Below, one piece after another: positions 5,690 to 47,597 of a stretch of 64,000 nt of DNA. The notes beneath the pieces were generated by a model. It made no database searches and was not told the origin of the DNA. It saw only the letters and a list, made by a program, of their open reading frames with translations. The position numbers and the translations under genes were made by a program. The stretch is taken from the IMG/VR virus record IMGVR_UViG_3300035184_001394, positions 1 to 64,000 of that record. One strand, written 5' to 3'. The stretch is from a virus (Duplodnaviria; Heunggongvirae; Uroviricota; Caudoviricetes). The stretch's first letter is position 1. The number at the start of each line of letters is the position of its first letter.

Positions 5690-5784
5690 TGTTATTTCTA
5701 TTCCTATTTACAGTTGTATTTCATTGATAATAATCGCCATTTTTCTTTGCTTCACGTTTCCGATCAATCATAACTATAGATTTG

Positions 5785-6036
5785 TTAAACGTCCTCGCAT
5801 GCTTTGCGACTAAGTTTCTTGAGTTTGGTTTCTTTTGTTTTGTTGTATTCATCTTTAACACCTAATATAAAAAATATAACGTAAAAACACGATGGAATTG
5901 ATAAGATAACTTGTAATAATCCAGCTGCAGTATCAGTAGTTCGAACATAAGACGCTACTGATATTATTACAATTGCAACAATAAAAATTGAAAATCTAGT
6001 AACGTTAATGAATTTTGTTTTTCTTTCTGCAATCAT
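5785..6036 (-). CDS. small membrane protein (83 aa, two TM segments)
   Basis: Hydrophobic ORF downstream of early promoter 6069-6096. Confidence 0.5.
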   Translation of the reverse strand: MIAERKTKFINVTRFSIFIVAIVIISVASYVRTTDTAAGLLQVILSIPSCFYVIFFILGVKDEYNKTKETKLKKLSRKACEDV

Positions 6037-6068
6037 CTAAACTTTTCACTTTTATTATTAATATGTTA

Positions 6069-6096
6069 TTATAACACAACAAAAAGAAAATGTCAA
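6069..6096 (-). promoter_or_regulatory. early sigma70-like promoter (minus strand)
   Basis: rc TTGACA then 16-17 nt then TATAAT. Confidence 0.5.
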
Positions 6097-6105
6097 CATT
6101 TATTT

Positions 6106-6285
6106 TTAGTAACCGCCACTCTTAAACCAACCCTTACCTTTCAATTGAAATCCGCCAGTAGAGGTGATAATCTTTTTCAAATCTCCAGCGCATTCTTCAC
6201 AGTTAGTCAATGCGTCATCTGACATACGCTGAACTGTGTCAATAACTTTTTTACATTTAATACATTCATATGTATATGTAGGCAA
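6106..6285 (-). CDS. FmdB-family zinc-ribbon protein (59 aa, TTG start)
   Basis: rc translation (M/L)PTYTYECIKCKKVIDTVQRMSDDALTNCEECAGDLKKIITSTGGFQLKGKGWFKSGGY. CxxC...CxxC. GGAGG sits 7 nt upstream of TTG. Not in the ORF track (under 60 aa). Confidence 0.45.
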   Translation of the reverse strand: MPTYTYECIKCKKVIDTVQRMSDDALTNCEECAGDLKKIITSTGGFQLKGKGWFKSGGY

Positions 6286-6297
6286 ATGTCATCCTCC

Positions 6298-6552
6298 TTA
6301 GTAGATTGCTCGGATAAATTCATCGCTAACTAAGATGCACTTAACACCCTCTACTGTAACAGGTAATCCCTTAGCCCAATCAAGAGCAACTTTATTACCC
6401 TGTTCAATATCCTCAACCAATGAGCCAACTTCCAAGACTAACCCTGGTAATGCACCTGTTGTAACTCGCTGTGTTAAGATTATGCCACTTTCTGTCAACT
6501 TATCGTTTGTTTTTATTTCGGTTACTAGTACAAAATTCTTTAATGGTTTCAT
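6298..6552 (-). CDS. groES: GroES/cpn10-like co-chaperonin
   Basis: MKPLKNFVLVTEIK...SGIIL...VLEVGS...V.VGD.IL... shows GroES architecture and length (84 aa). Confidence 0.75.
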   Translation of the reverse strand: MKPLKNFVLVTEIKTNDKLTESGIILTQRVTTGALPGLVLEVGSLVEDIEQGNKVALDWAKGLPVTVEGVKCILVSDEFIRAIY

Positions 6553-8165: not shown

Positions 8166-8348
8166 TTATATTGATACAAATTCGTATCTAATAAGAAGTG
8201 ACTCTACAACTAAGTAGAAAGCCCAAAACGGTATGGAAAAAGCAATGAGGGTTGACCAAAAGCCCTTAGCCAACACAATACCCCAAATCCATATGATGAA
8301 GAAAATTATTTTTACAAAAACGATTTTGTTTGTTCTCTTTGTTCTCAT
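8166..8348 (-). CDS. small membrane protein (about 60 aa, start taken at internal Met with AGGAAA SD)
   Basis: Hydrophobic ORF. The 5' extension listed in the ORF track overlaps the DUF551 gene. Confidence 0.4.
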   Translation of the reverse strand: MRTKRTNKIVFVKIIFFIIWIWGIVLAKGFWSTLIAFSIPFWAFYLVVESLLIRYEFVSI

Positions 8349-8350
8349 TA

Positions 8351-8659
8351 TTATTGTTTTTCCTGTGTTGGATCTGCTGGTAAATTCGTCCAATATGAAA
8401 TATCAGACTTATAAAATTTGTTTCCATTTGTGTCTCGAAATGTGTGAGAGTTGCGGCAAAACTCTCCTCTTAATGTACCAATATGTTTACCGGCATAAAA
8501 GAGTATTGGAGTGTGAAACGGTGGTGTATTATCTTTAACACTCAGCCATTGTGTCTTTGTTAGTGATGCTATATACTTTTTCAATACTCTTATATCTTCA
8601 TACAAGTTATATATAGAATTGCGAGACATCTCGGGCGATGTCTCGCAATTCGAAATCAT
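8351..8659 (-). CDS. DUF551-like protein
   Basis: C-terminal SYWTNLPADP resembles the DUF551 signature (THWMPLPEPP). Confidence 0.5.
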   Translation of the reverse strand: MISNCETSPEMSRNSIYNLYEDIRVLKKYIASLTKTQWLSVKDNTPPFHTPILFYAGKHIGTLRGEFCRNSHTFRDTNGNKFYKSDISYWTNLPADPTQEKQ

Positions 8660-8729
8660 GTTCGTCTGACCAAAGTTTTAAATTATCCATTTTTAGTAAT
8701 CCACGCTGTTAATATATTAAACAAATGAC

Positions 8730-9023
8730 TCAAGAACAAATCACACCAATTGCACCGCCGAGTATTAAAATATGTTGAGCTTTCTTTCTTTTTATTTTTT
8801 CAGCGGCTGTTAATACTTTTCGTTTCGGTGGGAATAATTTTCTATCTTCAATATAAGCTAAAGATTCAGCTCTACTCATATTATATAATGCAGCAGCTTG
8901 TTTTTTTCGTTGTGAGTTTGAAATTTGAACAACTTCTACTTTTGCTTCTTCTAGATAATTTTTATGTTTATTTTGAGTCATAATTATAGTTCTCTGTTTG
9001 GTGTTGTTTTTGATGTTAGCCAT
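8730..9023 (-). CDS. hypothetical protein (97 aa, basic, C-terminal hydrophobic helix)
   Basis: ORF on the operon strand. Start uncertain. Confidence 0.35.
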   Translation of the reverse strand: MANIKNNTKQRTIIMTQNKHKNYLEEAKVEVVQISNSQRKKQAAALYNMSRAESLAYIEDRKLFPPKRKVLTAAEKIKRKKAQHILILGGAIGVICS

Positions 9024-9198
9024 AGATCAGAATCAATTTATAAAATTTGTAAGTAGTACTACATATCTCGATTGTGTCCGGACATTTTGCTAAAGCTCTC
9101 TCCTCGGATTTACCGCCTACTACTAAATCAGTGCGACGCCCTGCGGTTTTACTAGTATGTGTCGAGATAGATTTATAAACAGCCTTGAATGTCATCAT
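9016..9198 (-). CDS. hypothetical protein (60 aa)
   Basis: Preceded by the leader AGTTACATAAATTGATAAAGG and promoter 9229-9257. Confidence 0.35.
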   Translation of the reverse strand: MMTFKAVYKSISTHTSKTAGRRTDLVVGGKSEERALAKCPDTIEICSTTYKFYKLILIYG

Positions 9199-9228
9199 AA
9201 TATATTACCTTTATCAATTTATGTAACT

Positions 9229-9257
9229 ATTATACTAAAATCAAAGTAAAATGTCAA
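9229..9257 (-). promoter_or_regulatory. early promoter plus conserved leader (minus strand)
   Basis: rc TTGACA, 17 nt, TATAAT, then AGTTACATAAATTGATAAAGG. Confidence 0.5.
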
Positions 9258-29845: not shown

Positions 29846-30589
29846 ATGCTTATTTTAAGTAAAACCCACGATTATTATGATTGCGTGTCGCAACACGGTA
29901 TCGACAAAACTATTATCTATAAGAGAAAAGATTCTGAAATAGAATTTAACTCAAATGAATTAAATTTTAAAATACATGATGTTTATCGAGATAGATGTTC
30001 TAGTGTATTAACTGTACGTTTATATTATATCTATTTTTGTGGTAAATTTTACCCAGGAGCTAAAATATCATGGTCACGCGACAGTCCATCTTTAGCAAAT
30101 AATTATAATATGAAAGATCCAGTTTATCATTGCTATTCAATGTATGAATACTTAGCTATCGTTGATCTATATAATAATACACATAATTATAATCAGTTTA
30201 AGATCTTAAAAGATTCAAAAAGAACTGCATATGTTAGCGCGCTTCGTTCACATAAAAAAATGAATTCATTCTTTTCTGATGAAGTAAAAATATCGCATGA
30301 TTTGATTCATAAAATTGGAACTCCAGTTGGCATGGTTGGTATGCGCATACCACGCCCTTTAAATAGTAATATTAAGTCAAATAACATTATTTTTTATAAA
30401 GACATAAATCTAAAGCAATTTGAGTTTTTTAGAGTTAAAGACACTTATATTGCGTTTAGTGAAATTGCTCAATTTATATCTGGTGTGCTTGGTGGTAACA
30501 GTCCACCTCTTATTGAAATAGAAGATAAACACAGAATCACTGGTCGCGGTTTTGACAATATGAGTTTTCGAAAACGCAAAGTAATATAA
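29846..30589 (+). CDS. hypothetical protein (247 aa)
   Basis: Complete ORF. No motif recognised. Confidence 0.55.
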   Translation: MLILSKTHDYYDCVSQHGIDKTIIYKRKDSEIEFNSNELNFKIHDVYRDRCSSVLTVRLYYIYFCGKFYPGAKISWSRDSPSLANNYNMKDPVYHCYSMYEYLAIVDLYNNTHNYNQFKILKDSKRTAYVSALRSHKKMNSFFSDEVKISHDLIHKIGTPVGMVGMRIPRPLNSNIKSNNIIFYKDINLKQFEFFRVKDTYIAFSEIAQFISGVLGGNSPPLIEIEDKHRITGRGFDNMSFRKRKVI

Positions 30590-30669
30590 AAAAATTATTG
30601 ACACCCATTTTTTATTATATTACAGTAGTCTTGTAAATTAATAAAACAACTTGAATTAGGAAATACACA

Positions 30670-30921
30670 ATGTTTAATTTTACACTAGGTAACGACAAGT
30701 TTTTAATAGAAATTAATTACATTTCAGGTATACAGAAGCGCTTTTGGGTATACAGTTTTAATATGAGTAATGGAAATGTAAATAATTGCAACTATGTCTC
30801 TGACTTAAACAGACCAATAGATATTTTTGCTGGTGATAAATACGAAAATAAAATAGAATCAATATATCAAATTGGTTATAAACGCGGCCTATTAAGTTTT
30901 TTAAAAGGGAAAAATAAATGA
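30670..30921 (+). CDS. hypothetical protein (83 aa)
   Basis: AGGAA SD. Overlaps the next gene start (ATGA). Confidence 0.45.
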   Translation: MFNFTLGNDKFLIEINYISGIQKRFWVYSFNMSNGNVNNCNYVSDLNRPIDIFAGDKYENKIESIYQIGYKRGLLSFLKGKNK

Positions 30922-31403
30922 GTAATGATTTAGTAAAAGACATTAGTGAAATGCACCAAAAGTTTGGTGTAAACGACTGGTTTGAAAAGAATAAACACGA
31001 CAAAGTATTAATGAAAGAATTCCTTAGATTCCGTATTAACATGTGTCTTGAAGAATTGCTTGAAACAGCAACTGCAGCCAACTTAGTGCTACATACTGAT
31101 ATTCAAGAAGGTCTAGTGTTTAAAGAATCTCAAAACAACGATTTGTGTATTGATTCTGAAGAAGTAGTAGATGGCTTAATCGATCTTTCTGTGTTCGCTA
31201 TTGGTACATTAGACGTGTTTAATGCTGATGCAAACAAAGCTTGGGATGCTGTATACGATGCGAATATGGTTAAAGAATCTGGTGTTAAACCTGGTCGCCC
31301 AAATAAATGGGGTCTTCCTGATATGATAAAACCGAAAATGGAAACACATGGCTACGACTGGGTAGCTCCATCTCATGAAGGTAATCACGGAGATTTTAAA
31401 TGA
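30918..31403 (+). CDS. MazG-like all-alpha nucleoside triphosphate pyrophosphohydrolase (candidate dCTPase, gp56 analogue)
   Basis: LEELLETATAANLV...VVDGLIDLSVFAIGTLDVF...NKAWDAVYDANMVK shows the MazG/NTP-PPase helix pattern. Confidence 0.55.
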   Translation: MSNDLVKDISEMHQKFGVNDWFEKNKHDKVLMKEFLRFRINMCLEELLETATAANLVLHTDIQEGLVFKESQNNDLCIDSEEVVDGLIDLSVFAIGTLDVFNADANKAWDAVYDANMVKESGVKPGRPNKWGLPDMIKPKMETHGYDWVAPSHEGNHGDFK

Positions 31404-31600
31404 GAAAGGAAATTATAGAAACACTAAAATCTCATGCTATTGGCCATATCAATAAACATAAGATGAACGTCGAGATTTACCTCGCAAACCCAGTTGGTAT
31501 CGGTGAGCATTCAGACGTCATTGAAACTATTGAACTAGAACTTAAACAAATTGCAGAGTATCAAGATCAACTCGAAGTTTTAGAAAAATACTTTAGTTAA
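31400..31600 (+). CDS. hypothetical protein (66 aa)
   Basis: Translationally coupled (ATGA overlap). Confidence 0.4.
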   Translation: MRKEIIETLKSHAIGHINKHKMNVEIYLANPVGIGEHSDVIETIELELKQIAEYQDQLEVLEKYFS

Positions 31601-31609
31601 AAATAACAA

Positions 31610-31638
31610 TTGACATTCCTTTTATTTTAATATATAAT
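31610..31638 (+). promoter_or_regulatory. early promoter (plus)
   Basis: TTGACA, 17 nt, TATAAT. Confidence 0.5.
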
Positions 31639-31681
31639 AGTTGTATATTAATTTAGAAGGTTTTCTAGTACAGGAGTTTAA

Positions 31682-32101
31682 ATGAAATACGATAACGGTA
31701 AAACAGATTTATCATTGATACCACCAGAAGTCTTAGTTGACATTGCGTGTGTATTAGGCTTTGGTGCAAAGAAATATGGTAGGGATAATCACCGCTTTGA
31801 TGCTGGAGAAACTGAATGGAGTAGAGTATATGCTTCAGCCCAACGCCACTTGCATGATTTTTGGTCAGGTGAAGATTTTGACCCAGAATCTGGTCAGAAA
31901 CATATAACACACGCAATTACCCAATTGATTATTCTTGCAACTGCAATTAACGATGGCCATACGAATATGGATGACCGGTTTTTTACAAAATTAAAACAGT
32001 TAAGCACTACAGAAAAACCAAAACCCGACAGTCTCTTAGATACTAAAGCAACTAAACATGCACCCTATGTATATTTAAAGTCTCGGGAGATTATTGAATA
32101 A
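31682..32101 (+). CDS. dNTP pyrophosphohydrolase of the MazZ / dATP-dGTP diphosphohydrolase N-domain type (DUF5664-like)
   Basis: MKYDNGKTDLSLIPPEVLVDIACVLGFGAKKYGRDN...WSRVYASAQRHLHDFWSGEDFDPESGQKHITHAITQLIIL matches the family consensus (KYD.GK...LIPPEAL..LA.VLTFGA.KY...W....W.R...A..RHL..........D.ESG..HLAHA). Confidence 0.6.
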   Translation: MKYDNGKTDLSLIPPEVLVDIACVLGFGAKKYGRDNHRFDAGETEWSRVYASAQRHLHDFWSGEDFDPESGQKHITHAITQLIILATAINDGHTNMDDRFFTKLKQLSTTEKPKPDSLLDTKATKHAPYVYLKSREIIE

Positions 32102-32850
32102 TGATAGTTGAAGATATACGTAAATACTTTAAAGAAGAACTTGCTGCAGAACGTTTCACTATTGATAAAACTGGTGCTAAAACGATCGAGTTGTTAGGTG
32201 CTAGCTTTATTGCTGATGAACCTGCTATTTTTGGTATTCCTAATCAAGAATATATTGATGCTGAAATAAAATGGTACAATAGTTGTTCTACTAATATTAA
32301 TACATTAGAAAAAATTTATGGTAAGAAACCAGCTGCGTGGGCTTACTCAGCAAATTCTTATGGCGAAATCAATTCGAATTATGGTCATCTTTTGTTTGAA
32401 CCAAAGTACTATAATCAATTTGAAAATGCTGTAAAAGAACTAATCAATAACCCTGATAGTAGACGTGCTCAACTAACATACACTAGACCTTCTGTATGGG
32501 TTGATTTTAACGAAAGCGGCAAAAACGATTTCATATGTACTTTAGGTCAACTGTTTTATATACGTGATAATAAATTACATATGGTAAGCATGATGCGAAG
32601 CAACGACTCTTGGGCTGGTTATCGCAATGATTATGCTTGGGCTAAATATCTTATGGAACTCGCTGTTAACGAATACAATGTTGGATGTGAAAATACTCCT
32701 ATTGCTATTGGTAATCTGTATTGGCAAGTAGCCAATATGCACATATATGAAAGAAATTTCTATTTAGTTGATTATTATTCAAAAACAGGTAAATTTCATA
32801 TTTCTAAACCCGACTATGCTGCAAAATATCCGAATAGTCAATATAATTAA
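32101..32850 (+). CDS. 42: gp42 deoxycytidylate 5-hydroxymethyltransferase
   Basis: Nearly collinear with T4 gp42: VDKTGAKTIELLGASFIADEP, GEINSNYG, NPDSRRAQLTYTRPS, MRSNDSWAGYRNDYAW (Asp retained, so cytosine-specific), HIYERNFYLVDYY, HISK.DY..KY. Confidence 0.9.
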   Translation: MIVEDIRKYFKEELAAERFTIDKTGAKTIELLGASFIADEPAIFGIPNQEYIDAEIKWYNSCSTNINTLEKIYGKKPAAWAYSANSYGEINSNYGHLLFEPKYYNQFENAVKELINNPDSRRAQLTYTRPSVWVDFNESGKNDFICTLGQLFYIRDNKLHMVSMMRSNDSWAGYRNDYAWAKYLMELAVNEYNVGCENTPIAIGNLYWQVANMHIYERNFYLVDYYSKTGKFHISKPDYAAKYPNSQYN

Positions 32851-32853
32851 CTG

Positions 32854-32882
32854 TTGACATTTCGGTTTAAGCTTGTTATAAT
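32854..32882 (+). promoter_or_regulatory. early promoter plus leader (plus)
   Basis: GTTGACATTT, 17 nt, TATAAT, AGTTACATAAATTTATTAGGAA ATG. Confidence 0.5.
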
Positions 32883-32911
32883 AGTTACATAAATTTATTA
32901 GGAAATATATT

Positions 32912-33364
32912 ATGTGTGATAAGTGGCATAAACGTTACCTTCATTTAGCAAAGAATATTGCTTCATGGAGCAGAGATCCTTCTCGTAAAATCGGAGCAGT
33001 TGCTATTGGTTCTAAAGGTCAGGTATTAGCTCAAGGTTTCAATGGATTCCCTCGGGGTATTCGAGATACTGAAGAAAGATATAATGACCGCGAGACTAAG
33101 TATAAATATGTCGTACACGCTGAAATGAACTGTATATATAACGCTACGTATAGTGGTGTTAGCCTTGATGGTAGTTCATTATATGTGCATGGTTTACCAG
33201 TTTGTTCTGAATGCGCTAAAGGTATTATTCAAACTGGAATCAAAGAAGTATTTTGGTCTGCTGATGAAGAAATACCAGTAAGATGGTGTGATGCTTATAA
33301 GATAACAAAGAATATGCTTCTAGAAGCTGGCATAAATATAACATATGTAAACATAGGAGAATAA
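32912..33364 (+). CDS. cd: dCMP deaminase
   Basis: Zinc-binding HAEMNC...PCSECAK motifs. Confidence 0.85.
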   Translation: MCDKWHKRYLHLAKNIASWSRDPSRKIGAVAIGSKGQVLAQGFNGFPRGIRDTEERYNDRETKYKYVVHAEMNCIYNATYSGVSLDGSSLYVHGLPVCSECAKGIIQTGIKEVFWSADEEIPVRWCDAYKITKNMLLEAGINITYVNIGE

Positions 33365-33367
33365 AAA

Positions 33368-33730
33368 TTGGAAGATGATTTATTACCAACAATAAGTGCG
33401 GTTATATTACTACCAGAGAGTAGATCTGACGTAACAAGATATGTGTTGATTGGAGATTTTAAATATGCTGGATTTGAAGTTCCAAGTGGGTTTGTGACTG
33501 ACGGTTTGACTATACCAAGGATATTTTGGAGCATACTACCACCCATTCACAGATACTTTCCTGCAGCCATAATTCATGATTATCTATTAACACAAGTATC
33601 TCGCGTAGAAGCTGACAGAGAGTTTAAGATTGTACTGAAAAAGCTAAATATATCTAGAGTGCGTAGATTTTTAATGGCTGCCGCAGTAAGATTATATTCA
33701 ACAATACTAAAAATATTAAATAAAAGTTGA
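33368..33730 (+). CDS. DUF1353 family protein (TTG start)
   Basis: FVTDGLTIPRIFWSILPP...AAIIHDYLL matches the DUF1353 signature. AGGAGA SD 8 nt before TTG. Confidence 0.6.
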   Translation: MEDDLLPTISAVILLPESRSDVTRYVLIGDFKYAGFEVPSGFVTDGLTIPRIFWSILPPIHRYFPAAIIHDYLLTQVSRVEADREFKIVLKKLNISRVRRFLMAAAVRLYSTILKILNKS

Positions 33731-33755
33731 CATTATAATCAACTTGTGATATAGT
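33727..33755 (+). promoter_or_regulatory. early promoter (plus) with an unusually long (about 80 nt) leader before the MIPS gene
   Basis: TTGACA, 17 nt, TATAGT. Confidence 0.45.
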
Positions 33756-33837
33756 AGTATCAATTAAACAACTGTGGGCTACTCTGCTTAAACCCAGCCA
33801 ATCCCACATTAATAAACTGAAATAATAGAGGAAGAAA

Positions 33838-35118
33838 ATGTCTAAAATTAATATCGCTATTGCCGGCGTCGGTAATTGCTCATCAGCACTTATTCAAGGT
33901 GTAGAATACTATAAAGAAAATCCAGAAGATACCATAGGTCTTATGTTTGAAGACATCGGTGGTTTTTCTGCTAAAAACTTTAATTTTGTTGTTGGATTTG
34001 ATGTCGATGCCCGTAAAGTTGGCCAACGATTAAATAACTCAATCTATGCTAAACCAAATTGTAACATGGAAGTATATCCTCCAAGTCATAATTTGACTTG
34101 TATAGCATCTAAATCGACAGTATACAGATCGCCAACATTTGATGGTATAGCACCTCACATGCACGATTTACATCCTGATATATCCTTCGTAGAAGATACA
34201 GAAACTCTGGCTATCACGGCTAATGAATACATTCAAATTCTTAAAGATAACAAAGTTGATGTATTACTTAACTATATGCCAGTTGGTTCTGAAACAGCAG
34301 CTCGTTGGCACATTGAAAATGCTATTCGCGCAGGTGTCCATATTGTTAACTGTATGCCAACATATATATCTACTAAAGATGCAATGGAACTTGAGAGACT
34401 TGCTATCGAACATGGCGTAACAGTTGTTGGTTCTGACATGCGTTCTGATTACGGCGCGTCACGTTTATCTGAGGTGTTACAAGGTTCAATTATGGATTCT
34501 GGATTGTTGGTTACTCAACACATCCAAGAAAACAAAGCTTGTGGAACTACTCAAGGTGATATGCGCCGTACTGGTCGTACTGCAAATACTGACTTCTTAA
34601 ACATGGCAACTAAAGATCGTTTAAAAAATAAACATATCTCTAAAGAAAATGTTTTAAATGGTCAAGCTGCTGTACGTGGTAAAGATATTGCTGGTCTTAC
34701 AATGTATGCTGGTCCGTCACTTACAGTTTTCCAAAAACCAGGTGATGAATACATTGGTTCAGATAATAAGATTGCTAATATTGATATGGTATTCTGGGGA
34801 TGGGCTGGGGCTCGCTATGAATTGACTGCTCGTTTATCTGTTCAAGATTCTCCTAATAGTGCTGGAATTGTATTTGATGCAGTTCGTTTTTGCAAAGTTG
34901 CTGCTGAGATGGGTATTGTTGGTTACTTACGTGGTCCATCGGCACACTCTCAAAAGACACCACCAACTCAGCTAAAAACTGCTGATTCAAAATTCGAATG
35001 CGAAGCATTAGCTCGTAGGATTTTAACTGATCTTACTCGTCCGCAACTCGCCGAAAATTACCCACAAGTTGAAGATTTGCTTTATACATTCCAAGCTGAT
35101 ACTTCAGATTACGAATAA
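33838..35118 (+). CDS. myo-inositol-1-phosphate synthase (MIPS/Ino1 family, bacterial-actinobacterial type)
   Basis: Collinear with mycobacterial Ino1, recalled from memory. INIAIAGVGNCSSALIQGVEYYK matches VAIVGVGNCASSLVQGVEYYY. KVDVLLNYMPVGSE matches KVDVLVSYLPVGSE. LSVQDSPNSAGIVFDAVRFCKVA matches [23 protein letters not shown]. Confidence 0.85.
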   Translation: MSKINIAIAGVGNCSSALIQGVEYYKENPEDTIGLMFEDIGGFSAKNFNFVVGFDVDARKVGQRLNNSIYAKPNCNMEVYPPSHNLTCIASKSTVYRSPTFDGIAPHMHDLHPDISFVEDTETLAITANEYIQILKDNKVDVLLNYMPVGSETAARWHIENAIRAGVHIVNCMPTYISTKDAMELERLAIEHGVTVVGSDMRSDYGASRLSEVLQGSIMDSGLLVTQHIQENKACGTTQGDMRRTGRTANTDFLNMATKDRLKNKHISKENVLNGQAAVRGKDIAGLTMYAGPSLTVFQKPGDEYIGSDNKIANIDMVFWGWAGARYELTARLSVQDSPNSAGIVFDAVRFCKVAAEMGIVGYLRGPSAHSQKTPPTQLKTADSKFECEALARRILTDLTRPQLAENYPQVEDLLYTFQADTSDYE

Positions 35119-35132
35119 AGGAAAAATATATT

Positions 35133-35510
35133 ATGAATACTTTTGATATTGATGGTGTGATTTATATGGGTAAAGACCATGACGGCGTTTACCCTGGGCC
35201 GAACGACTTGATTATTACTGGTCGTTCTATTGAAGAAAAACCAGAAACTATTAGGATGCTGCAGCAGAAAGGGATTAATAATAAAGTTTATTTTAATCCC
35301 TTACCATTTAAACAAAAGACCAGAGAAAGTTCTGGTCACCATAAAGCAGACATCATTTCAGCTCTTATTACATTAGGTTGTCCTATAGATATCCACTTTG
35401 AAGATGATCCAATACAAGCTGATATAATCAAAAAGGTTACATCAATTCACGTTGTATTATTAAACCACAACTTAACTGAAAAGGAGAATATGCGCCATGG
35501 GGGATACTGA
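35133..35510 (+). CDS. small HAD-superfamily phosphatase (125 aa)
   Basis: N-terminal FDIDGVIY (HAD motif I DxDGV) and C-terminal IHFEDD (motif IV). Confidence 0.5.
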   Translation: MNTFDIDGVIYMGKDHDGVYPGPNDLIITGRSIEEKPETIRMLQQKGINNKVYFNPLPFKQKTRESSGHHKADIISALITLGCPIDIHFEDDPIQADIIKKVTSIHVVLLNHNLTEKENMRHGGY

Positions 35511-36240
35511 AATGTATAAAGGCTATAAAATTAGAACAGGCCCGGGTATTGATCGTGATATGATTCGCGATTCACTAAAACATTATAGCCACTTCTCACT
35601 TGATAAAAAATCAGTAGTGCTTGATCTTGGTTCTAATATTGGTGGATTTACTAGGATGGCAAACGAAAAAGAAGTTAAACAATACATAGCAGTAGAACCA
35701 GATCCAGAAAATATGGAATTAACAACTGTTAATTCCATAGACGGAAGTAATAACTTATATTTGTTGGGTGTAGCCTCTATTTCTGAATCAGAACATTTAA
35801 CGTTTTTTCAATCTAATGCTGTAAGATCAAAATGCTCTGGAACTATTAATAGTAAAAGTCAAACAGCTACTAGAAAGAATGGCACTGCATACGATGTTGT
35901 TAATTATAATGTGTATGAACTGTTGGAAAAATATAAACCTACTCATGTCAAATGTGATATAGAAGGAGCAGAAATTGATTGGTTAGCTGATTGCGAAGGT
36001 ATATTTCCAGACTATATTCAGGAGTTGGCGTTTGAGTTGCATGGTAGAGCTGGTATAGTAGAACTCGAGCGATATTACGATAATATAATTGAACATTTTG
36101 AAATAGTTAGTTTTGTTCCATCTGTTGGGTTTAAAGGCAGTTTTAATAAAAAAGACGCTGTACTGTATGAAAAAGTTGGATATACAACAGAAGGTACTTT
36201 GTGGAGCATAGACTTATTCTTGCGTAGAAGAGTAAAATAA
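35497..36240 (+). CDS. FkbM-family SAM-dependent methyltransferase
   Basis: VVLDLGSNIGGFT is the FkbM motif (D.GAN.G.F). Confidence 0.65.
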   Translation: MGDTEMYKGYKIRTGPGIDRDMIRDSLKHYSHFSLDKKSVVLDLGSNIGGFTRMANEKEVKQYIAVEPDPENMELTTVNSIDGSNNLYLLGVASISESEHLTFFQSNAVRSKCSGTINSKSQTATRKNGTAYDVVNYNVYELLEKYKPTHVKCDIEGAEIDWLADCEGIFPDYIQELAFELHGRAGIVELERYYDNIIEHFEIVSFVPSVGFKGSFNKKDAVLYEKVGYTTEGTLWSIDLFLRRRVK

Positions 36241-37406
36241 TGATTGATGGTACACATAAATCATACGAAGTACCTAAAGGATTTAAATCTGCTGACTCAA
36301 ATTATCCACTGGATAAATATTTTGATTTGTGCGACGTTGAGAAATTTCTTGACTTTAAATATTTTGTATGCGAAGTTAATAAGAGATCGGAATGGCAAAG
36401 GGGTCTTATTACAACATACGATTATAAAGAGTATGCTCTTAATCCAAATACAGAATACTTTCATCCGATGATTACATACGACGATCGTATGGTTTATATC
36501 GCTGAAAATATAGTAGGATTATCAAGCGACACTTTATCTCTACACAATAAGATTGGTAACACAATTATATCTCACTTCTATGGAGCTAGAGGTATTCACC
36601 AGATTGCCACTCGTAATAATGACGTTAAAACTGCTCATGTTGATTTTGAAAACTATTTTACTACTGACGAGCGCTCTCGTATACGAGAAAATTTAAAACT
36701 TTCAAAAATTGCTGGTTTGCCTATATATGGTTCTACTGAATTGCGTACTTCTCTCTGGGGTGCTGCAAACAAATATCAACAAAGCCGTTTTAATGTTACA
36801 ACCGAAGAAGAAAGAAAGCACCCTGGAAATATTATGGATTGGGTAGCTGGTTTATGCGAAGATGGAACTTTTGATCGTTTAATTAGTTGTAATTCTATTA
36901 AAGAAGCATTTAATGAACTCACTTCTAACGCTGGTATTGGAAGTTATTATGGATTCCATTGTGCTACTTCAAATTCAGTAAACCCTGAGTTGAACTGGAC
37001 TAATGATGATAACTTCGTTAAACCTGGACCTGGTGCTCAATATACTTTAAAGTTGATGTTTCCAAACGCAACAAATAAGTTAATTAACAGTGGCGATCTT
37101 GTTATATGGTTTAGACACAATCAAAAGTTCTTTGGTTTTGGCGATATTGAAATCCATGAATCTGCTCATAATATTTTAAATTTTGAAGGCAAAAAGATTC
37201 TTGAAAAAGATCAAACCGAAATGATGACTTATGGTTCTGAGGTTGCTATGTGCCAATATGGTATTTTTTGTAAGTTGCGCGAAGATAAAAAAGCTTGCGA
37301 TAGACGTAAAGTTGCCCGTATAGGAGATAGAAACATTGAAAAAATGCTAAATATGGCTGAGCAAGAACAAATTTCTCAAGCAGCATTTCAACAATTTTTT
37401 ACATGA
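36240..37406 (+). CDS. hypothetical protein (388 aa) within the modification module
   Basis: Translationally coupled to FkbM (ATGA). No motif recognised. Confidence 0.5.
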   Translation: MIDGTHKSYEVPKGFKSADSNYPLDKYFDLCDVEKFLDFKYFVCEVNKRSEWQRGLITTYDYKEYALNPNTEYFHPMITYDDRMVYIAENIVGLSSDTLSLHNKIGNTIISHFYGARGIHQIATRNNDVKTAHVDFENYFTTDERSRIRENLKLSKIAGLPIYGSTELRTSLWGAANKYQQSRFNVTTEEERKHPGNIMDWVAGLCEDGTFDRLISCNSIKEAFNELTSNAGIGSYYGFHCATSNSVNPELNWTNDDNFVKPGPGAQYTLKLMFPNATNKLINSGDLVIWFRHNQKFFGFGDIEIHESAHNILNFEGKKILEKDQTEMMTYGSEVAMCQYGIFCKLREDKKACDRRKVARIGDRNIEKMLNMAEQEQISQAAFQQFFT

Positions 37407-37413
37407 GGTAAAT

Positions 37414-38517
37414 ATGAAAACAATTATAGCAGCACCATTCATCCCTATGTCGTTTCAGATAACGAGTCATAGGGCAGCACAAGGAATTATATATGCTGAT
37501 TTGCTTAAACACTATCACACAGACGATATTTCAGTAAGCTTATCTAGACCAAGCGTACAAGGTCCCGAAGCTAAAGAATCAAACAAAACAGAAGATTTTA
37601 ACGAATATGATAGATTATATATCTATCATGGTAATGATCGTAAAGCAGACGCTGGTGATCTAAACTTTTTTGGTGGAACTCGAAATTTCCCTCATGCTTA
37701 CAATATTAGAAATATTTCTAAATTTAAAGGTGAAGTTTATTCTATTGGATATGATATGCCTGATTATGCTACTATGTTAGAGCACAAGATTACTGGCCAT
37801 GAAAAGCGAGATGGTACACTTGACACAATGGTTCCTGAATTTCTCGAAGTTGATATTGATAATTTAAGAGCAATGCAAGAAAGAGCGATCACAATTATAC
37901 CACAACATCCTAGTTGGAGCGGTTTAGTGATCGGTGATAGTCATGCTATTTGTATGTATCGTGAAGGATATAATGTTAATTCAGTTCCGTTTAAAACTTT
38001 GTATGGAGCCTTAGAATTAGGCTTAAAAAGTTTCATAAATAAAAATGACATTAAGGATATTGAATGTTACTTTGGTAACATTGATATACGTCATCACATT
38101 TGTAGACAGGACGATCATAAACAAGCTATTAGAGATCTTGTTGATCGTTATGTCGACCAAGTCGATTCTTTGGATATGGAAAGTAAAGTGATCTATGAAC
38201 TATTACCTATCGAAAACGAACGCAGAAATCTTCCAAAAAGCGGATGGTATCTTGGTGAGAAATTTCATGGTACGTGGGCTGAGCGTAACGCAGCAAGACT
38301 TTACTTTAAAGAATACTCAATGAAAAGAGTTCAAGGAACGAGTGTTGAATTTCGTGAATGGCTCACTCCATCGTATTATAATGAATTAGGTGAACTTGAT
38401 TTTAAAGCTATGGAGCGACCAAAATCAGTTCATTTATCTCGTGAATACTATCCTCATTGGCAAGGACTTGAATACAATAAAATTAATAAAACAACAATTG
38501 AGGATTTTTTTCAATGA
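37414..38517 (+). CDS. T4 beta-glucosyltransferase-like DNA glycosyltransferase (GT-B)
   Basis: MKTIIA... and NEYDRLYIYHG...DLNFFGGTRNF parallel T4 beta-gt MKIAIINMG... and NDYDRLIVVNSSINFFGGK. Similar length (367 vs 351 aa). Confidence 0.5.
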   Translation: MKTIIAAPFIPMSFQITSHRAAQGIIYADLLKHYHTDDISVSLSRPSVQGPEAKESNKTEDFNEYDRLYIYHGNDRKADAGDLNFFGGTRNFPHAYNIRNISKFKGEVYSIGYDMPDYATMLEHKITGHEKRDGTLDTMVPEFLEVDIDNLRAMQERAITIIPQHPSWSGLVIGDSHAICMYREGYNVNSVPFKTLYGALELGLKSFINKNDIKDIECYFGNIDIRHHICRQDDHKQAIRDLVDRYVDQVDSLDMESKVIYELLPIENERRNLPKSGWYLGEKFHGTWAERNAARLYFKEYSMKRVQGTSVEFREWLTPSYYNELGELDFKAMERPKSVHLSREYYPHWQGLEYNKINKTTIEDFFQ

Positions 38518-39740
38518 AGCACGCAACGATCATACCACTTATAGGAGGCGAAGCACTAGCATCTACTGAAGTATTTGGAACTAAACCAGAATACATTTTG
38601 TCTTATAAAGGATTTGAAAACAATGAAAAACACTTACTAAACTATTGGAATAACGAAGTACCCTATCATGTACTTGACGATGAGAACAGTATTGCTCCTA
38701 AAAATATTAATGAGAAAGTTGATGTTATATCGAGTGTCTGTCCTTGTGCTGGATTAAGTCAATATCATTCTAAACACGGAGCTGAAAATCAAAATAACCA
38801 ATGGATGGAGAAAACAGCCAAGCATATTCTAGAAACCGTACAACCGAGTGTATTTTGGGGAGAAAATGCTCCTGCTCTTGTTGGTAAGATCGGTGAGTTT
38901 ATGTTAACTAAACTACGTAAAATTGGCCTCGATAATGGATACTCTATGGGTCTATATCTTACTAAGAATATTAAACATGGTATTCCACAATTTCGTAAAC
39001 GCACTTTCTATTTCTTCTGGAAGAAAAGCGAGTTTGGTGATACTGCACCAATGCTTAAATTTATTAACAAAGAACACACAAAAATTGAAGATGTAATTAT
39101 GAGCGCTACTGGTAGTACACAGTTAGAACCAATTAATTCTAAAATTCCAAGCAAAGACGATCCTTACTATAGATATCTTCTTGAAGTAATTCATGGTGGT
39201 ATTACGCATAGAGAATATTTTGAGTTATTAAAAACTAAAAATGTTCGAGGCAACGATGTAGAATCTATTATTATAAATTCAGGTCACGATTATATGATGG
39301 TTGGTGAATGGATGGAAAAAAATGGATACGACAGAGAAGTTCCAAAATGTGAACGAAAATATCATAAGCTAAAAGATGGTGGCAATATAATGCGACGTGG
39401 CACTATTATTCCTAAAGATTATATTGGAGCTTTTGTTGGTCATTATCCGACAGTTCTTACTCATCCATATGAAGATCGTTATATTAATTATCGCGAAGCA
39501 ATGACTATTATGGGATTACCACAAGATTACGAATTGTTAGACCCTAAAAAATCTGCTAATCATATTTGTCAGAATGTTCCATTACAAACTGCTAAAGATA
39601 TGGTGTTAGAAATTAAAGCTGTTTTCGAAGGAAAGCGCCAATTTTCTGATACTGATTTTTTATTACAATCTAACATAAACGAAACATCCAGAACTTTGAA
39701 TATACCAGATAAAGAGCAAAGTTTAGAATCATTTTTCTGA
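38514..39740 (+). CDS. C5-cytosine methyltransferase-like protein
   Basis: Motif I IIPLIGGEA, motif IV SSVCPCAGLS (Pro-Cys), motif VI FWGENAPAL (ENV), motif VIII QFRKR, motif X REAMTIMGLPQDY. Last gene of the module. Confidence 0.65.
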   Translation: MKHATIIPLIGGEALASTEVFGTKPEYILSYKGFENNEKHLLNYWNNEVPYHVLDDENSIAPKNINEKVDVISSVCPCAGLSQYHSKHGAENQNNQWMEKTAKHILETVQPSVFWGENAPALVGKIGEFMLTKLRKIGLDNGYSMGLYLTKNIKHGIPQFRKRTFYFFWKKSEFGDTAPMLKFINKEHTKIEDVIMSATGSTQLEPINSKIPSKDDPYYRYLLEVIHGGITHREYFELLKTKNVRGNDVESIIINSGHDYMMVGEWMEKNGYDREVPKCERKYHKLKDGGNIMRRGTIIPKDYIGAFVGHYPTVLTHPYEDRYINYREAMTIMGLPQDYELLDPKKSANHICQNVPLQTAKDMVLEIKAVFEGKRQFSDTDFLLQSNINETSRTLNIPDKEQSLESFF

Positions 39741-39748
39741 AATGATTG

Positions 39749-39777
39749 TTGACATTTAAACACAAACATGTTATAAT
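39749..39777 (+). promoter_or_regulatory. early promoter (plus) upstream of dexA
   Basis: GTTGACATTT, 17 nt, TATAAT. Confidence 0.5.
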
Positions 39778-39805
39778 ATGGAACATTAGTTAATTGGGGT
39801 AGTAA

Positions 39806-40438
39806 ATGAAAAAAGAATTATTAATAGATTTCGAAACATTAGGAATAAATCCTGAAAATTGCGTAGTACTCGACTGCTCGATTATTATCTTCGACAGAGA
39901 GAGATTCACATCTGATAAACCGTACACAGTAGCGGATATTACTGAAACTAAAACATTTAAAATATCTGTTACTGATCAGGTTAACAATTACAATTATGCT
40001 GTTGAAAACAGTGTTATTGAATTTTGGTCTAAACAAGATAAAGAAGTGCGAGCAAAAATTAAGCCGCTACCAACTGATCTTACTGTTAAGGAATTTACTG
40101 ATCAGTTTCTCAACTTAGTTTCTCAGCACAAAATTAGTTATTGGTGGTCTCGTGGAAACACGTTTGATCCACCTATTCTAACTAGAATTTTTGATGATCA
40201 AGGTAAGAAAAATGAATTAAATAAGAATTTAAAATATTGGGCAGTAAGAGATATGCGCACGTTTATTGACGCAAAACTCGATTTCCCGAAAGAAAATGGT
40301 TTTTCTCCTTTTGAAGATGAAGTAAAATGGGGGAAAATATTTAAAAAGCATGATAGCTCTTGGGATGTTTTAGCTGATGTTTTAAGATTACAAGCGATCG
40401 CGAGAGCCGAAGATGATTTGGAACAAGTGAAATTATGA
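39806..40438 (+). CDS. dexA: DexA exonuclease A (DEDD 3'-5' exonuclease)
   Basis: LLIDFETLG (Exo I), WSRGNTFDPPIL matches T4 CRGMSFDFPIL, and WAVRDMRTFIDA. Confidence 0.8.
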   Translation: MKKELLIDFETLGINPENCVVLDCSIIIFDRERFTSDKPYTVADITETKTFKISVTDQVNNYNYAVENSVIEFWSKQDKEVRAKIKPLPTDLTVKEFTDQFLNLVSQHKISYWWSRGNTFDPPILTRIFDDQGKKNELNKNLKYWAVRDMRTFIDAKLDFPKENGFSPFEDEVKWGKIFKKHDSSWDVLADVLRLQAIARAEDDLEQVKL

Positions 40439-41286
40439 AGATAGAAGCGACAATTGAACAATTAAGAGGAGCATCACTTTTTATTGGCGCACCAATGTAT
40501 GGAGGTAATTGCTCTGGTTTATTCACTAAATCTTGTACTGACTTATCTTCAATATGCGCGCTTAACGGAATTAAATTACAATACTATTTCTTATTCAACG
40601 AAAGTTTAGTTCAAAGAGCGCGAAATTACGTTACTGACGAATTTATGCGTTCTGGTTGTACTCATCTAATGTTTATAGACTCAGACATTGGTTTCGATGC
40701 TAGAGATGTTCTACACTTATTAAGCCTTCAGATATTAGATCCCAAGTATGATGTAATAACTGGACCTTATCCTAAGAAAACAATAGCTTGGGAAAAAGTT
40801 AGTAAAGCAGCTAAACTCGGCCATGGCGCAGAAAACCCCTTTGAATTAGAGAAATTTACAGCTGATTTCGTATTCAACCCAGAAGACAATAAAAATAGTT
40901 TTAATCTCGGTGAACCAATTAAAGTTAAAGAAGCAGGAACTGGTTTCATGTTAATTCCTCGCGTAACTCTTGAAAAATATCAAGAAGCTTATCCTGAAAT
41001 GAATTACAAACCAGACCACTTGCGATCTGAATCTTTTGACGGAGCTCGTAATATTACAGCATTTTTTGATTGTATTATAGACCCTAAGACGAAACGTTAT
41101 TTGTCTGAAGATTATTTCTTTTGTCATAAGACTCGTGAAGCTGGGATGAGTGTTTGGATGTGCCCTTGGATGCAAATCAACCATGTTGGTTCTTATATAT
41201 TTAGAGGCAATATGGCTGCGATTACTCAGTTGGGTGTTACTGCAACAGCAGACAATTCTGGTCAAAAGAAGAATTATAAAAAATAA
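40435..41286 (+). CDS. putative GT-A-type glycosyltransferase (DxD-like LMFIDSDIGF)
   Basis: A hydrophobic stretch followed by DSD, typical of GT-A DXD. Otherwise unknown. Confidence 0.35.
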   Translation: MKIEATIEQLRGASLFIGAPMYGGNCSGLFTKSCTDLSSICALNGIKLQYYFLFNESLVQRARNYVTDEFMRSGCTHLMFIDSDIGFDARDVLHLLSLQILDPKYDVITGPYPKKTIAWEKVSKAAKLGHGAENPFELEKFTADFVFNPEDNKNSFNLGEPIKVKEAGTGFMLIPRVTLEKYQEAYPEMNYKPDHLRSESFDGARNITAFFDCIIDPKTKRYLSEDYFFCHKTREAGMSVWMCPWMQINHVGSYIFRGNMAAITQLGVTATADNSGQKKNYKK

Positions 41287-45848: not shown

Positions 45849-47597
45849 TCATCCAGCCCAGTTTGGATCTAGCGAATTTCCACCGCCATGGCCAAATAAA
45901 ACTGATTGTGAATTACTATTAATATCACCTTCTTTTATATTAGTTGATCCTTCTAATTTATTATAAACATTAGTAACCCCACCTCCAACATTTTCTTTTA
46001 CGGTGTCAATAGTTTTAAGCTTATTATCTCCTTCTGTTTGTCTTTTAATTGATCTTCTAAGCCTAGCAACTTGCATTTTTGTTCTTCTGTTTTGTTTAGT
46101 CGTTACAGATCTAACTTCTTGTACAAGAGACACTTCGGGTATAAACGTTCCATCATCTACCGATGAAGCTAATTGCTCGAGTTTATTGAAACTATCTTCT
46201 AAAATTACTTTTTGCTCTTCTATTCGTTCTAATTCTGCTTTGCCGCTTGCTATTATTCCTTTATTACTACGACCGCCTGCCGTACTTTTTGATTTAGCAA
46301 GAGCTGCTTCTTCCTGAGCTAGAAGTTCATCGTTAATTTTATTAAGCTCGCTTCTAGCTTTTAATATTGCTTCACGTTTTTCTTTTTCTGTTTTTGCTAG
46401 AGATAAATCTGTGTTAACAAGATAAAAATTATTATCCATATCAGCAACCAATTTTGATCTACTTTTTTCAACTTCACCTTTTATATAATCGGCTGCAACA
46501 CCACCTAAAGTATAAACAGCGCCGCCAACAGCACCAACTAGCGCTCCAACTGGGCCAAACATTGCACCTATTGCTGCGCCTTTTAGAGCAGTTTCACCAA
46601 GATTGACGAGATTAAGTTCAGCTTCACCAATTTTAACAGCACTATTAATACTGTTTTTCTCAAAATTATCTCTAACCATATCAGCTGCAACATCAACTAC
46701 TATTGTTGCAACCGATGCAAGACCAACTCCACGAACAATTGATCCTTTTAATCCAAATGGCAGTTTTCCTGCACCTATAGGAGGTGTTGCTGTTGTAGGG
46801 CTTGCTGCTGTAGGAAGAGTGTTTGTCAATTTACCTAATCCGAGAGCTTTCAATACTGATCCACCGGCAGCAAACATATTTTTTACAAGTCCAGCTGCTA
46901 TTCCAATAGCACCACTGAGTAATTTAAAATTGTTTCTTAAACCAAGAACAACAACAGAACTTCCAACTAACCAAGTTAATGGATTTGTGATTATCTCTGA
47001 AAAACTTGATAAACTTTCACTCACTTTAAAAATCCAATCTTTGAATTTTGTTTCATATTCTGTGAACTTTCCACCGGTCATCTTGTTAACCATACCTTTT
47101 ATCAAGTTATAGCTAAAAAATACACCACCAGCTACTTTAGCAAACGTTTTAATGAAGTCAAATCCAGCTTTAGCACCACTTTTAAGTTTATCACCTAGCA
47201 CTGGTTTTGTTTTTTTAGGTTTTGTTTTTTCTGGTTTTGTTAGATCTTCTACGTCATCAATAGCTTGTCGTCTTTCTGCTGCTTCTTTATCTTGAATTTC
47301 AGTTAACTCAAGAGATTTAGCAAGTAAACTGGTTTGTTCAATTAAACTAGTTGATATAGTTTGAAATACATTGTCAAATTTACTCAGTTGTATTTTAACT
47401 TGTCTTATAGAATTTGGACTACTGTTTCGATTTAATAAACCTTCTGCCTTCAACCTATCTATAATAGCTTGTGTATCATCAGACACTCTAGCCTTTTTAG
47501 ATTTCTTTTCACTTTTTTGTGATGGTTGATCTTTCGCGCTTTTTTGTTGTCCGACTATACTCGGTAGTGTTTGATTTTTTTCTGGTTTATCAGCCAT
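45849..47597 (-). CDS. 29: gp29-like baseplate hub / tail-length tape-measure protein
   Basis: 582 aa (T4 gp29 590 aa). Lys-rich coiled-coil N-terminal half, Gly/Ala-rich hydrophobic middle, in the baseplate block. Confidence 0.45.
   Translation of the reverse strand: MADKPEKNQTLPSIVGQQKSAKDQPSQKSEKKSKKARVSDDTQAIIDRLKAEGLLNRNSSPNSIRQVKIQLSKFDNVFQTISTSLIEQTSLLAKSLELTEIQDKEAAERRQAIDDVEDLTKPEKTKPKKTKPVLGDKLKSGAKAGFDFIKTFAKVAGGVFFSYNLIKGMVNKMTGGKFTEYETKFKDWIFKVSESLSSFSEIITNPLTWLVGSSVVVLGLRNNFKLLSGAIGIAAGLVKNMFAAGGSVLKALGLGKLTNTLPTAASPTTATPPIGAGKLPFGLKGSIVRGVGLASVATIVVDVAADMVRDNFEKNSINSAVKIGEAELNLVNLGETALKGAAIGAMFGPVGALVGAVGGAVYTLGGVAADYIKGEVEKSRSKLVADMDNNFYLVNTDLSLAKTEKEKREAILKARSELNKINDELLAQEEAALAKSKSTAGGRSNKGIIASGKAELERIEEQKVILEDSFNKLEQLASSVDDGTFIPEVSLVQEVRSVTTKQNRRTKMQVARLRRSIKRQTEGDNKLKTIDTVKENVGGGVTNVYNKLEGSTNIKEGDINSNSQSVLFGHGGGNSLDPNWAG

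Follow-up and report, generated by a model that had tools for sequence, protein, structure and literature searches.

A 64,000-nucleotide stretch of viral DNA (the window; positions 1 to 64,000 of IMG/VR record IMGVR_UViG_3300035184_001394), from an uncultured phage, carries a gene for a protein of the MIPS (myo-inositol-1-phosphate synthase) family, followed by a gene for a small HAD-like protein. We found that these two genes form a fixed pair. It turns up again and again among genes for DNA hypermodification, on different phage backbones and in six or more arrangements. Chances are even, in our assessment, that the pair makes a cyclitol feeding DNA base hypermodification. MIPS as a lone gene is ordinary; its value lies in a context, that of a strict pair recurring in DNA-modification clusters on unrelated backbones, which predicts either DNA hypermodification of a new kind or, at the least, a new branch supplying precursors to the kinds already known. 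What appears to be new is this genomic context and not the protein, which is a member of a known family. A first-pass annotation of the window had singled out the MIPS gene itself but had passed over its surroundings, which we judge to be the more interesting.

A phage MIPS-family protein and its HAD-like partner

The two genes are arranged head to tail:
33838–35118, plus strand: MIPS-family protein, 426 aa (PF01658; 1gr0; conserved catalytic residues)
35133–35510, plus strand: candidate minimal HAD-like phosphatase, the MIPS partner, 125 aa (motifs D5xD7GV, T29, K71 and E90-D91-D92)

The first is an open reading frame (ORF) that runs from ATG to stop over exactly the interval given. Its translation holds all four strings that the first-pass annotation had quoted for a MIPS encoded by a phage: GVGNCSSALIQGVEYY (residues 10–25), KVDVLLNYMPVGSE, SVQDSPNSAGIVFDAVRFCKVA and PSAHSQKTPPTQL, the last of which fits the pattern PS.H..K.PP.QL. 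Family membership was confirmed by Pfam PF01658 (Inos-1-P_synth), which matches residues 250–338 with 32.8 bits against a gathering score of 27 (E = 8e-8), and by a phmmer search of the PDB, in which Mycobacterium tuberculosis Ino1 (1gr0) is matched by query residues 3–382 at E = 2.7e-48. At the threshold used (E ≤ 0.001) three structures pass, the others being Ari2 (6k96; E = 2.1e-27) and a MIPS-related protein (3cin). With a family profile, 1gr0 was matched at E = 2.5e-90. Homoserine dehydrogenase, which the annotation had named as the competing family, gave a 16-bit trace match at most. The protein is 38.2% identical to Ino1 (129 of 338 aligned positions in the HMMER alignment) versus 33.4% to Ari2, and the family profile scores 307 bits with Ino1 versus 158 bits with Ari2, so that closeness of sequence does not assign it to the Ari2 type. 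The near-full-length collinearity with Ino1 claimed earlier holds for the aligned span, but with gaps, as 42 query residues lie in insertions and the C-terminus is extended by about 44 aa. Judged by these comparisons, the ORF is a real, full-length MIPS-family member in a phage.

Catalytic positions were read from the HMMER alignment, using the conserved MIPS blocks and residue numbers of PMC5614600 (Table 3); the 1gr0 numbering in our alignment was checked and reproduces those numbers. The Rossmann GxGxxA/S motif is kept, with GVGNCSS opposite GVGNCAS of 1gr0. M. tuberculosis (Mt) N229, N233, D235, K248, K252, K284, D310 and K346 correspond to N232, N250, D252, K265, K269, K311, D337 and K373, and the Asp and Ser of GDD-x-K-S (Sc D320 and S323) are kept as D200 and S203. 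Every position tested in this comparison with Ino1, proposed earlier as a check on the catalytic Lys and Asp residues, was thus retained, and in 10 family members, 39–85% identical to the window protein, ten catalytic or ligand positions do not vary. Two positions differ: Mt G232 is Ala (A249) in the window clade and Gly in the MIPS proteins of phages Moby and Cr30, while Mt S247 is N264 in the window protein and Asn, Asp or Ser across the family. The window clade and its Sediminibacterium relatives also carry a 15-aa insertion (14–15 aa) within the catalytic N-x-GGN-x-D block, which Moby and Cr30 lack, keeping the canonical NVGGN. We predict that the protein is an NAD-dependent hexose-6-phosphate cycloaldolase, probably an inositol-3-phosphate synthase, and consider a glucose 6-phosphate to inositol 3-phosphate activity probable.

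A scripted survey of 96 loci, together with loci added later, revealed a homologue of the HAD-like gene after MIPS in every viral locus with sufficient downstream sequence, at MIPS identities from 38% to 88% (the Pol A-type phage locus L096 is taken up below). These include the Ralstonia phage RP13, Moby, Cr30 and the divergent loci L099, L100 and L102; L097 ends short of any possible partner position, and the context of L098 is uninformative. Among 50,697 phage records, exactly the same 19 carry MIPS and the partner. In Cr30 the homologue lies at 8868–9254; another Cr30 ORF, at 8283–8750, was rejected as the partner at 14% identity.

In 60 distinct orthologues (35–67% identical), conservation of the motifs D5-x-D7-G-V9, T29, K71 and E90-D91-D92 reaches at least 95%. 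The motifs are invariant in 11 divergent members, and their order and type are those of the four HAD-phosphatase motifs. All 11 divergent members match phrog_415, ‘polynucleotide kinase’ (best E = 2.7e-15), and GenBank labels the gene as hypothetical, ‘polynucleotide kinase’ or ‘phosphoribosyltransferase’. With moderate confidence, we take the motif pattern to indicate a minimal HAD phosphatase.

Recurrence within DNA-modification gene sets

In the first arrangement (A), shared by the window and about 60 marine T4-like contigs (MIPS identity 59–88%), the order is a gp42-type hydroxymethylase, dCMP deaminase, MIPS, the HAD-like partner, in some cases an FkbM methyltransferase, an amino acid:DNA transferase (AADT)-like protein, an SGNH-fold protein and a C5-methyltransferase-like protein. 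In the second (B), the pair lies within FolE/QueD/QueE/QueC/DpdA (7-deazaguanine) clusters (Moby, L006, L013, L052, L097 and L099). ADDT genes stand directly upstream in a third (C), together with HMUDK_hel in L090 and at E = 1e-52 in Cr30, while in RP13 (D) an HMUD2 kinase gene is 3 kb downstream of the pair. In L096 (E), HMUDK_hel, HMUD1 kinase, ADDT and RGP-like glycosyltransferase genes lie on one side of MIPS, and NT5C, ThyA-like and MazG genes on the other. Finally (F), reverse look-ups that started from AADT-like homologues reached the MIPS–HAD pair in two of three cases, one of them on a 280-kb contig (L102). ADDT homologues occur in just 0.4% of phage records. The block of the window has parted from uvsX/gp41, which are about 32 kb away on the other strand, yet it is intact.

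Glycosyltransferase-like genes were seen beside MIPS in two of these phages. An RGP/GT75-like protein and an NT5C-type HAD nucleotidase (5333–6313 and 8834–9415 of L096) flank MIPS in a canonical 5-HMUDK/ADDT cluster, and a weak match to a TET-associated glycosyltransferase (TAGT) lies directly upstream of MIPS in Cr30. Such genes may act together with the cyclitol pathway.

Phage MIPS genes are already known in GenBank, and that of the window is no first. The 19 records found by tblastn were all already annotated as MIPS; they include RP13 at 73% identity, 16 records of Moby-like Stenotrophomonas phages at about 40%, and Caulobacter phage Cr30 at 38%. One genome paper, on phage Ps15, lists MIPS as bacterial-like with no further comment (PMC9025141). 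Searches for MIPS, inositol or cyclitol with phage DNA hypermodification returned unrelated mentions only (structural matches of glycosyltransferases and one genome note); as far as the searchable literature shows, a MIPS–HAD module within hypermodification clusters appears to be undescribed.

In IMG/VR, at least 533 contigs encode a MIPS relative, and the family is clearly constrained. An exhaustive search of 1.84 billion representatives placed the window clade in one 50%-identity cluster (62% identity, 569 bits), with the next relatives at 44–46% identity and no more than 276 bits; the next-nearest clusters are metagenome-only. The only truly cellular members found belong to Sediminibacterium/Chitinophagaceae, are 62% identical and lie on contigs of 3.98 Mb and 775 kb. 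A specifically actinobacterial likeness, as the first-pass annotation had supposed, was therefore not borne out. Of four matches on ‘bacterial’ contigs of metagenome-assembled genomes, only Sediminibacterium proved truly cellular, supported by its 3.98-Mb contig. Two others combine the MIPS–HAD pair with phage genes, including HMUDK_hel in one assigned to Melainabacteria (L004, CALBDR010000242.1) and QueC/DpdA/QueE/UvsX in one assigned to Caldisericales (L006, CAZVYK010000003.1), and are most likely phage DNA mis-binned into bacterial genomes. A nucleotide search with window positions 30000–40000 gave no match among the 50,697 phage records, and a 77-kb JGI contig carries a neighbour protein that is 100% identical.

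A probable early operon of the window phage

The window phage is a T4-like myovirus, with a gp43-type polymerase, gp46-like SbcC, topoisomerase II, gp5/gp6 baseplate proteins, gp45, gp44/gp62 and RegA. The genes and sites around the pair are:
31682–32101, plus strand: MazG-like nucleotide pyrophosphohydrolase of the dGTP_diPhyd_N family, 139 aa (Pfam PF18909; phrog_801)
32101–32850, plus strand: T4 gp42-type dCMP hydroxymethylase (1b49, E = 6.6e-71, full length)
32912–33364, plus strand: dCMP deaminase (Pfam PF00383); most loci keep it in synteny with the hydroxymethylase and MIPS
33727–33755, plus strand: sigma-70-type promoter-like site, TTGACA-17 nt-TATAGT with extended −10 TG, 11 of 12 matches, at the 107-nt gap upstream of MIPS
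33828–33834, plus strand: Shine–Dalgarno-like GAGGAAG, 3 nt before the MIPS ATG, read from the sequence
35497–36240, plus strand: FkbM-family methyltransferase, 247 aa (Pfam PF05050; TIGR01444 at 57.5 bits, above cutoff)
36240–37406, plus strand: candidate AADT-like DNA-base transferase (helix-hairpin-helix glycosylase fold), 388 aa (Pfam HMUDK_hel only)
37414–38517, plus strand: SGNH/GDSL-hydrolase-fold protein by structure model, 367 aa (invariant G174-D175-S176-H177)
38514–39740, plus strand: divergent C5-pyrimidine-methyltransferase-like protein, 408 aa (Pfam PF00145)

The gp42-type enzyme is the likely source of a 5-hydroxymethyl pyrimidine. It keeps the Asp of RNDYAW, where the 6l18 variant chain has RNNYAW, and we take this residue to be the cytosine-specifying D179. 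The phage probably replaces cytosine with 5-hydroxymethylcytosine (5-hmC); we saw no glucosyltransferase in the window. A DUF1353 gene (33368–33730, plus strand; PHROG ‘tail assembly chaperone’) separates the dCMP deaminase from MIPS, and our probe did not find a counterpart of it at that position in the other surveyed loci.

From MIPS to the C5-methylase-like gene (33838–39740), gaps or overlaps between successive genes are no more than 14 nt, and judging from this layout the MIPS, HAD-like, FkbM, AADT-like, SGNH and C5-methylase-like genes are probably co-transcribed early. Within 31400–40600 only four promoter-like sites reach 11 or 12 of 12 matches; all are on the plus strand, intergenic and just upstream of genes. 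Besides the one before MIPS, they are perfect 12/12 sigma-70 consensus sites (TTGACA-17-TATAAT) at 31610–31638, 32854–32882 and 39749–39777 (plus strand), each before a plus-strand gene. The overall number of promoter-like sites is not above that in shuffled sequence. We regard the promoter before MIPS as suggestive, and the four sites look like T4-style early promoters that would divide the region into transcription units.

Neither the 367-aa protein nor the HMUDK_hel protein was recognisable as an ADDT by sequence, pairwise BLAST against the Cr30 ADDT showing no similarity, and we therefore turned to a fold search. AlphaFold models of the 388-aa and 367-aa proteins are confident (pLDDT, the model confidence score, of 92.5 and 88.8, respectively). 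The 388-aa model is nearest to the PaMx11 glycinyltransferase that acts on 5-phosphomethyl-2′-deoxyuridine (5-PmdU) and to helix-hairpin-helix glycosylases, and its E334 and C338 are invariant. In other contigs, FkbM and the AADT-like protein occur as one fused protein (P0217 and P0234). Distant AADT-like homologues (24%) were also seen in 19 Aeromonas T4-like phages without MIPS (31 and 44RR2.8t among them), and another adjoins an integrase in the Crocinitomix algicola genome.

The 367-aa protein belongs to a large family (849 matches) with no Pfam match and has an uncharacterised N-terminal domain beside its SGNH domain; phrog_17781 is a fusion of the SGNH protein with the AADT-like protein. 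It could carry out an acyl-transfer or esterase step on a DNA adduct. Across 29 orthologues, the C5-methylase-like protein keeps its PC (Cys77), ENA, QxRxR and QNVP motifs; phmmer found no PDB match for it. In a phage that apparently makes 5-hmC, ordinary C5 methylation would have no substrate, and this protein may perform some other chemistry initiated by C6 attack.

Two observations concern other parts of the window. UvsX homology is split over two adjacent minus-strand ORFs, 703–1245 (180 aa) and 1299–2204 (301 aa), beside a gp41-like helicase ORF that runs off the window start; this could reflect a split gene, a paralogue or a frameshift. A 582-aa ORF (45849–47597, minus strand) between the replication module and the structural genes has no PHROG match at E ≤ 1e-5.

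A proposed cyclitol pathway, its alternatives and known systems

In the pathway that we propose, the MIPS protein would follow the established chemistry of its family. With NAD+ it would oxidise a hexose 6-phosphate, most probably glucose 6-phosphate, at C5; an intramolecular aldol reaction would close the ring, and reduction would give a cyclitol phosphate, most likely myo-inositol 3-phosphate. The HAD-like phosphatase would strip off the phosphate, acting on the cyclitol phosphate while it is still free or once it has been joined to its acceptor. By analogy with mycothiol and bacterial phosphatidylinositol synthesis, the cyclitol may be attached in its phosphorylated form and lose the phosphate later, and such an order would suit a polynucleotide-phosphatase-like HAD protein. 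The AADT-like enzyme would add a cyclitol hydroxyl to an activated 5-hydroxymethyl pyrimidine in phage DNA, much as the serine hydroxyl is added in ViI, and O-methylation would possibly follow. The fixed MIPS–HAD module would in this way form part of a phage DNA-hypermodification pathway. Its steps have precedents: AADTs add amine or hydroxyl nucleophiles to 5-PmdU, serine in ViI being one example (PMC8989533), and in RB69 and DLP3 a sugar-phosphate enzyme and a small HAD phosphatase feed cytosine glycosylation/hypermodification (PMC13326640).

More tentatively, and with doubt outweighing confidence, we suggest that in phages with the pair the DNA bears a cyclitol, a type of compound for which no report as a DNA modification exists yet. 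One candidate adduct is an inosityl ether on 5-hydroxymethyl-cytosine or -uracil, made via the AADT-like enzyme and sometimes O-methylated by FkbM; in the 7-deazaguanine phages there might be a different cyclitol adduct. Such a modification would be environmentally common, because the module is present in at least 533 IMG/VR contigs, many of them marine and T4-like.

Several observations weigh against this proposal. At the level of the enzyme, the MIPS protein is not filed as an actinobacterial-type Ino1, because it scores 198.6 bits with the TIGR03450 equivalog (mycothiol_INO1), whose cutoff is 638. Ari2, a non-MIPS paralogue that cyclises fructose 6-phosphate (PMC9092360), has the same catalytic residues, and these can therefore speak for a working cycloaldolase without fixing its substrate. 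The sequence hence does not prove glucose 6-phosphate as substrate or inositol 3-phosphate as product. The first-pass description of the protein as a bona fide MIPS is accordingly overstated: family, Rossmann motif and catalytic residues agree with it, but sequence cannot establish it, given Ari2 and the failed Ino1 cutoff. At the level of the partner, the HAD assignment draws on motifs and a PHROG match; Pfam HAD matches are sub-threshold (Hydrolase_6 at E = 0.1; Acid_phosphat_B at E = 0.0065 in one member), sequence and profile searches against the PDB and against the L096 NT5C protein gave nothing significant, and L096 is without this specific HAD partner. As for the link to DNA, the upstream enzyme is of the dCMP type and not the dUMP type, and characterised AADT chemistry takes place on 5-hydroxymethyl-2′-deoxyuridine; Pfam, NCBIfam and PHROGs revealed no P-loop 5-HMUDK-type kinase in the window operon, leaving the activation step missing; and no AADT-like gene was seen in a 7-deazaguanine context. 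Many of the 80 IMG/VR loci, those of type A among them, are close relatives, so that independent observations number nearer six to eight than eighty, and the pol-to-uvsX region of T4-like phages is variable and gathers accessory genes.

This last point belongs to the strongest alternative, which we consider unlikely but worth serious attention: that the pair is an auxiliary metabolic module making free myo-inositol from glucose 6-phosphate, altering host physiology for purposes unrelated to DNA (a compatible solute, a precursor of an inositol lipid or surface polysaccharide, or a drain on glucose 6-phosphate), and that its closeness to DNA-modification genes reflects a variable early region collecting accessory genes. 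A MIPS and a phosphatase do make up the complete, established two-step route to free inositol, and in many loci the pair lies between the DNA polymerase and uvsX/gp41. The closest cellular homologue (L014 8001–9311, on the 3.98-Mb Sediminibacterium contig) sits inside a capsule/exopolysaccharide locus, where its neighbours are Epimerase_2, Poly_export, Wzi and glycosyltransferases. This points to cells using the product for something other than DNA, and suggests a cyclitol-containing polysaccharide in these Bacteroidota. The cellular homologue stands apart in another way as well: it has no phosphatase-like neighbour, with about 1.9 kb downstream free of ORFs of 80 aa or more. Loss of MIPS in Bacteroides also perturbs capsule loci (PMC9246714). 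However, backbones other than T4 also show the association with DNA-modification genes (RP13, L100, the Pol A phage L096 and, at 280 kb, the contig L102), and the modification gene sets differ; the window block is separate from uvsX/gp41; look-ups that start from the AADT-like gene recover the MIPS–HAD pair; and no CDP-alcohol transferase or nucleotidyltransferase, as a lipid or polysaccharide route would use, was seen adjoining phage MIPS genes.

It is rather improbable that the protein is instead a MIPS-superfamily paralogue with different chemistry. Among solved structures, Ari2 comes second in similarity (E = 2e-27, 33% identity) and has all catalytic residues in common with it, the phage clade falls below the Ino1 equivalog cutoff, the window protein carries the insertion in the N-x-GGN-x-D block and is substituted at both Mt G232 and Mt S247, and the neighbouring genes are nucleotide and DNA enzymes. 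The family profile, however, prefers Ino1 to Ari2 (307 versus 158 bits), and Moby and Cr30, in which the insertion is absent and NVGGN canonical, have comparable contexts.

The first-pass annotation had also read a GC-richer MIPS stretch as a sign of acquisition from a cellular host. Of the 62 window genes, MIPS is indeed the richest in GC (0.383 against a mean of 0.336, z = 2.1), but the excess sits at codon positions 1 and 2 (GC1 0.521, GC2 0.404), whereas GC3 is genome-typical (0.223, with 0.234 as the mean; z = −0.31, rank 38 of 62), and synonymous codon usage fits the genome better than that of most genes (rank 8 of 62). Since GC3 and codon usage match the genome, there is no compositional sign of recent capture, and the GC signal reflects the amino-acid composition of a conserved enzyme. 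That MIPS is a recently captured passenger without a dedicated phage function, in line with its top GC and with the Ps15 genome note, which calls that MIPS ‘of presumably bacterial origin’ (PMC9025141), is very improbable given this composition, orthologues 59–95% identical fixed in the same operon across hundreds of viral contigs, invariant catalytic residues and closest cellular sequences just 62% identical.

If the cyclitol proposal is true, it would widen the chemistry of phage anti-restriction DNA decoration, offer tools for DNA labelling and give functions to widespread ‘hypothetical’ marine phage genes (HAD-like, AADT-like and SGNH-fold); the module is present in three cultured groups, namely Cr30, Moby-like phages and RP13. 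If it is false, a well-defined phage inositol-synthesis module would still need explanation.

Among known systems, M. tuberculosis Ino1 (1GR0) resembles the window protein in fold family, length class, 38% identity over residues 3–382, Rossmann motif and catalytic residues. The window protein differs from it in the 42 inserted residues, the C-terminal extension of about 44 aa and the changes of Mt G232 to Ala and Mt S247 to Asn, and is linked to HAD-like and DNA-modification genes and not to mycothiol or phosphatidylinositol genes. Ari2 (6K96), of aristeromycin biosynthesis, is likewise of the MIPS superfamily with the same catalytic residues, and feeds a nucleoside-type product; unlike the predicted phage enzyme, it is a five-membered cyclitol-phosphate synthase of a Streptomyces antibiotic pathway that acts on fructose 6-phosphate, and it is only 33% identical. 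The MIPS of Bacteroides thetaiotaomicron, BT_1526, has been assayed biochemically and has a crystal structure (PMC9246714). We dropped it as the type for the subtype of about 425 aa, as it was not among the PDB matches of either the sequence or the profile search (the presence of its chain in that set being unconfirmed); from the sequence searches we take this to mean that BT_1526 is a different MIPS subtype and lends no direct support to the activity of the window clade.

The annotated phage MIPS proteins are nearer: RP13 ORF125 (73% identity), those of Moby, Mendera, IME-SM1 and Ps15 (40%) and that of Cr30 (38%) share the HAD-like partner, with DNA-modification genes close by, whereas GenBank gives them no function or DNA-modification link, and those of Moby and Cr30 are without the 15-aa insertion. 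The arabinosyl-cytosine pathway of RB69 and DLP3 is similar in its T4-like cluster, with a sugar-phosphate enzyme and a small HAD phosphatase near a gp42-type enzyme and dCTPase (PMC13326640). Its later steps call on a kinase, a nucleotidyltransferase and GT-B glycosyltransferases. The window yielded none of these, and a cyclitol, which has no anomeric carbon, cannot be a glycosyl donor. Thymidine hypermodification (ViI, M6, PaMx11, PhiW-14 and SP10) relies on gene clusters that combine a hydroxymethyl-pyrimidine source and a nucleotide pyrophosphatase with an AADT-fold protein, and the window has a similar cluster, its AADT-like member being a candidate. Those pathways use a 5-HMUDK kinase and an amino acid:DNA transferase, with serine in ViI as the precedent for a hydroxyl nucleophile, and ADDT and HMUD kinase genes flank MIPS in the relatives L096, L090, Cr30 and RP13. 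If the MIPS–HAD module works as proposed, it would represent a variant of these known post-replicative pyrimidine hypermodification pathways.

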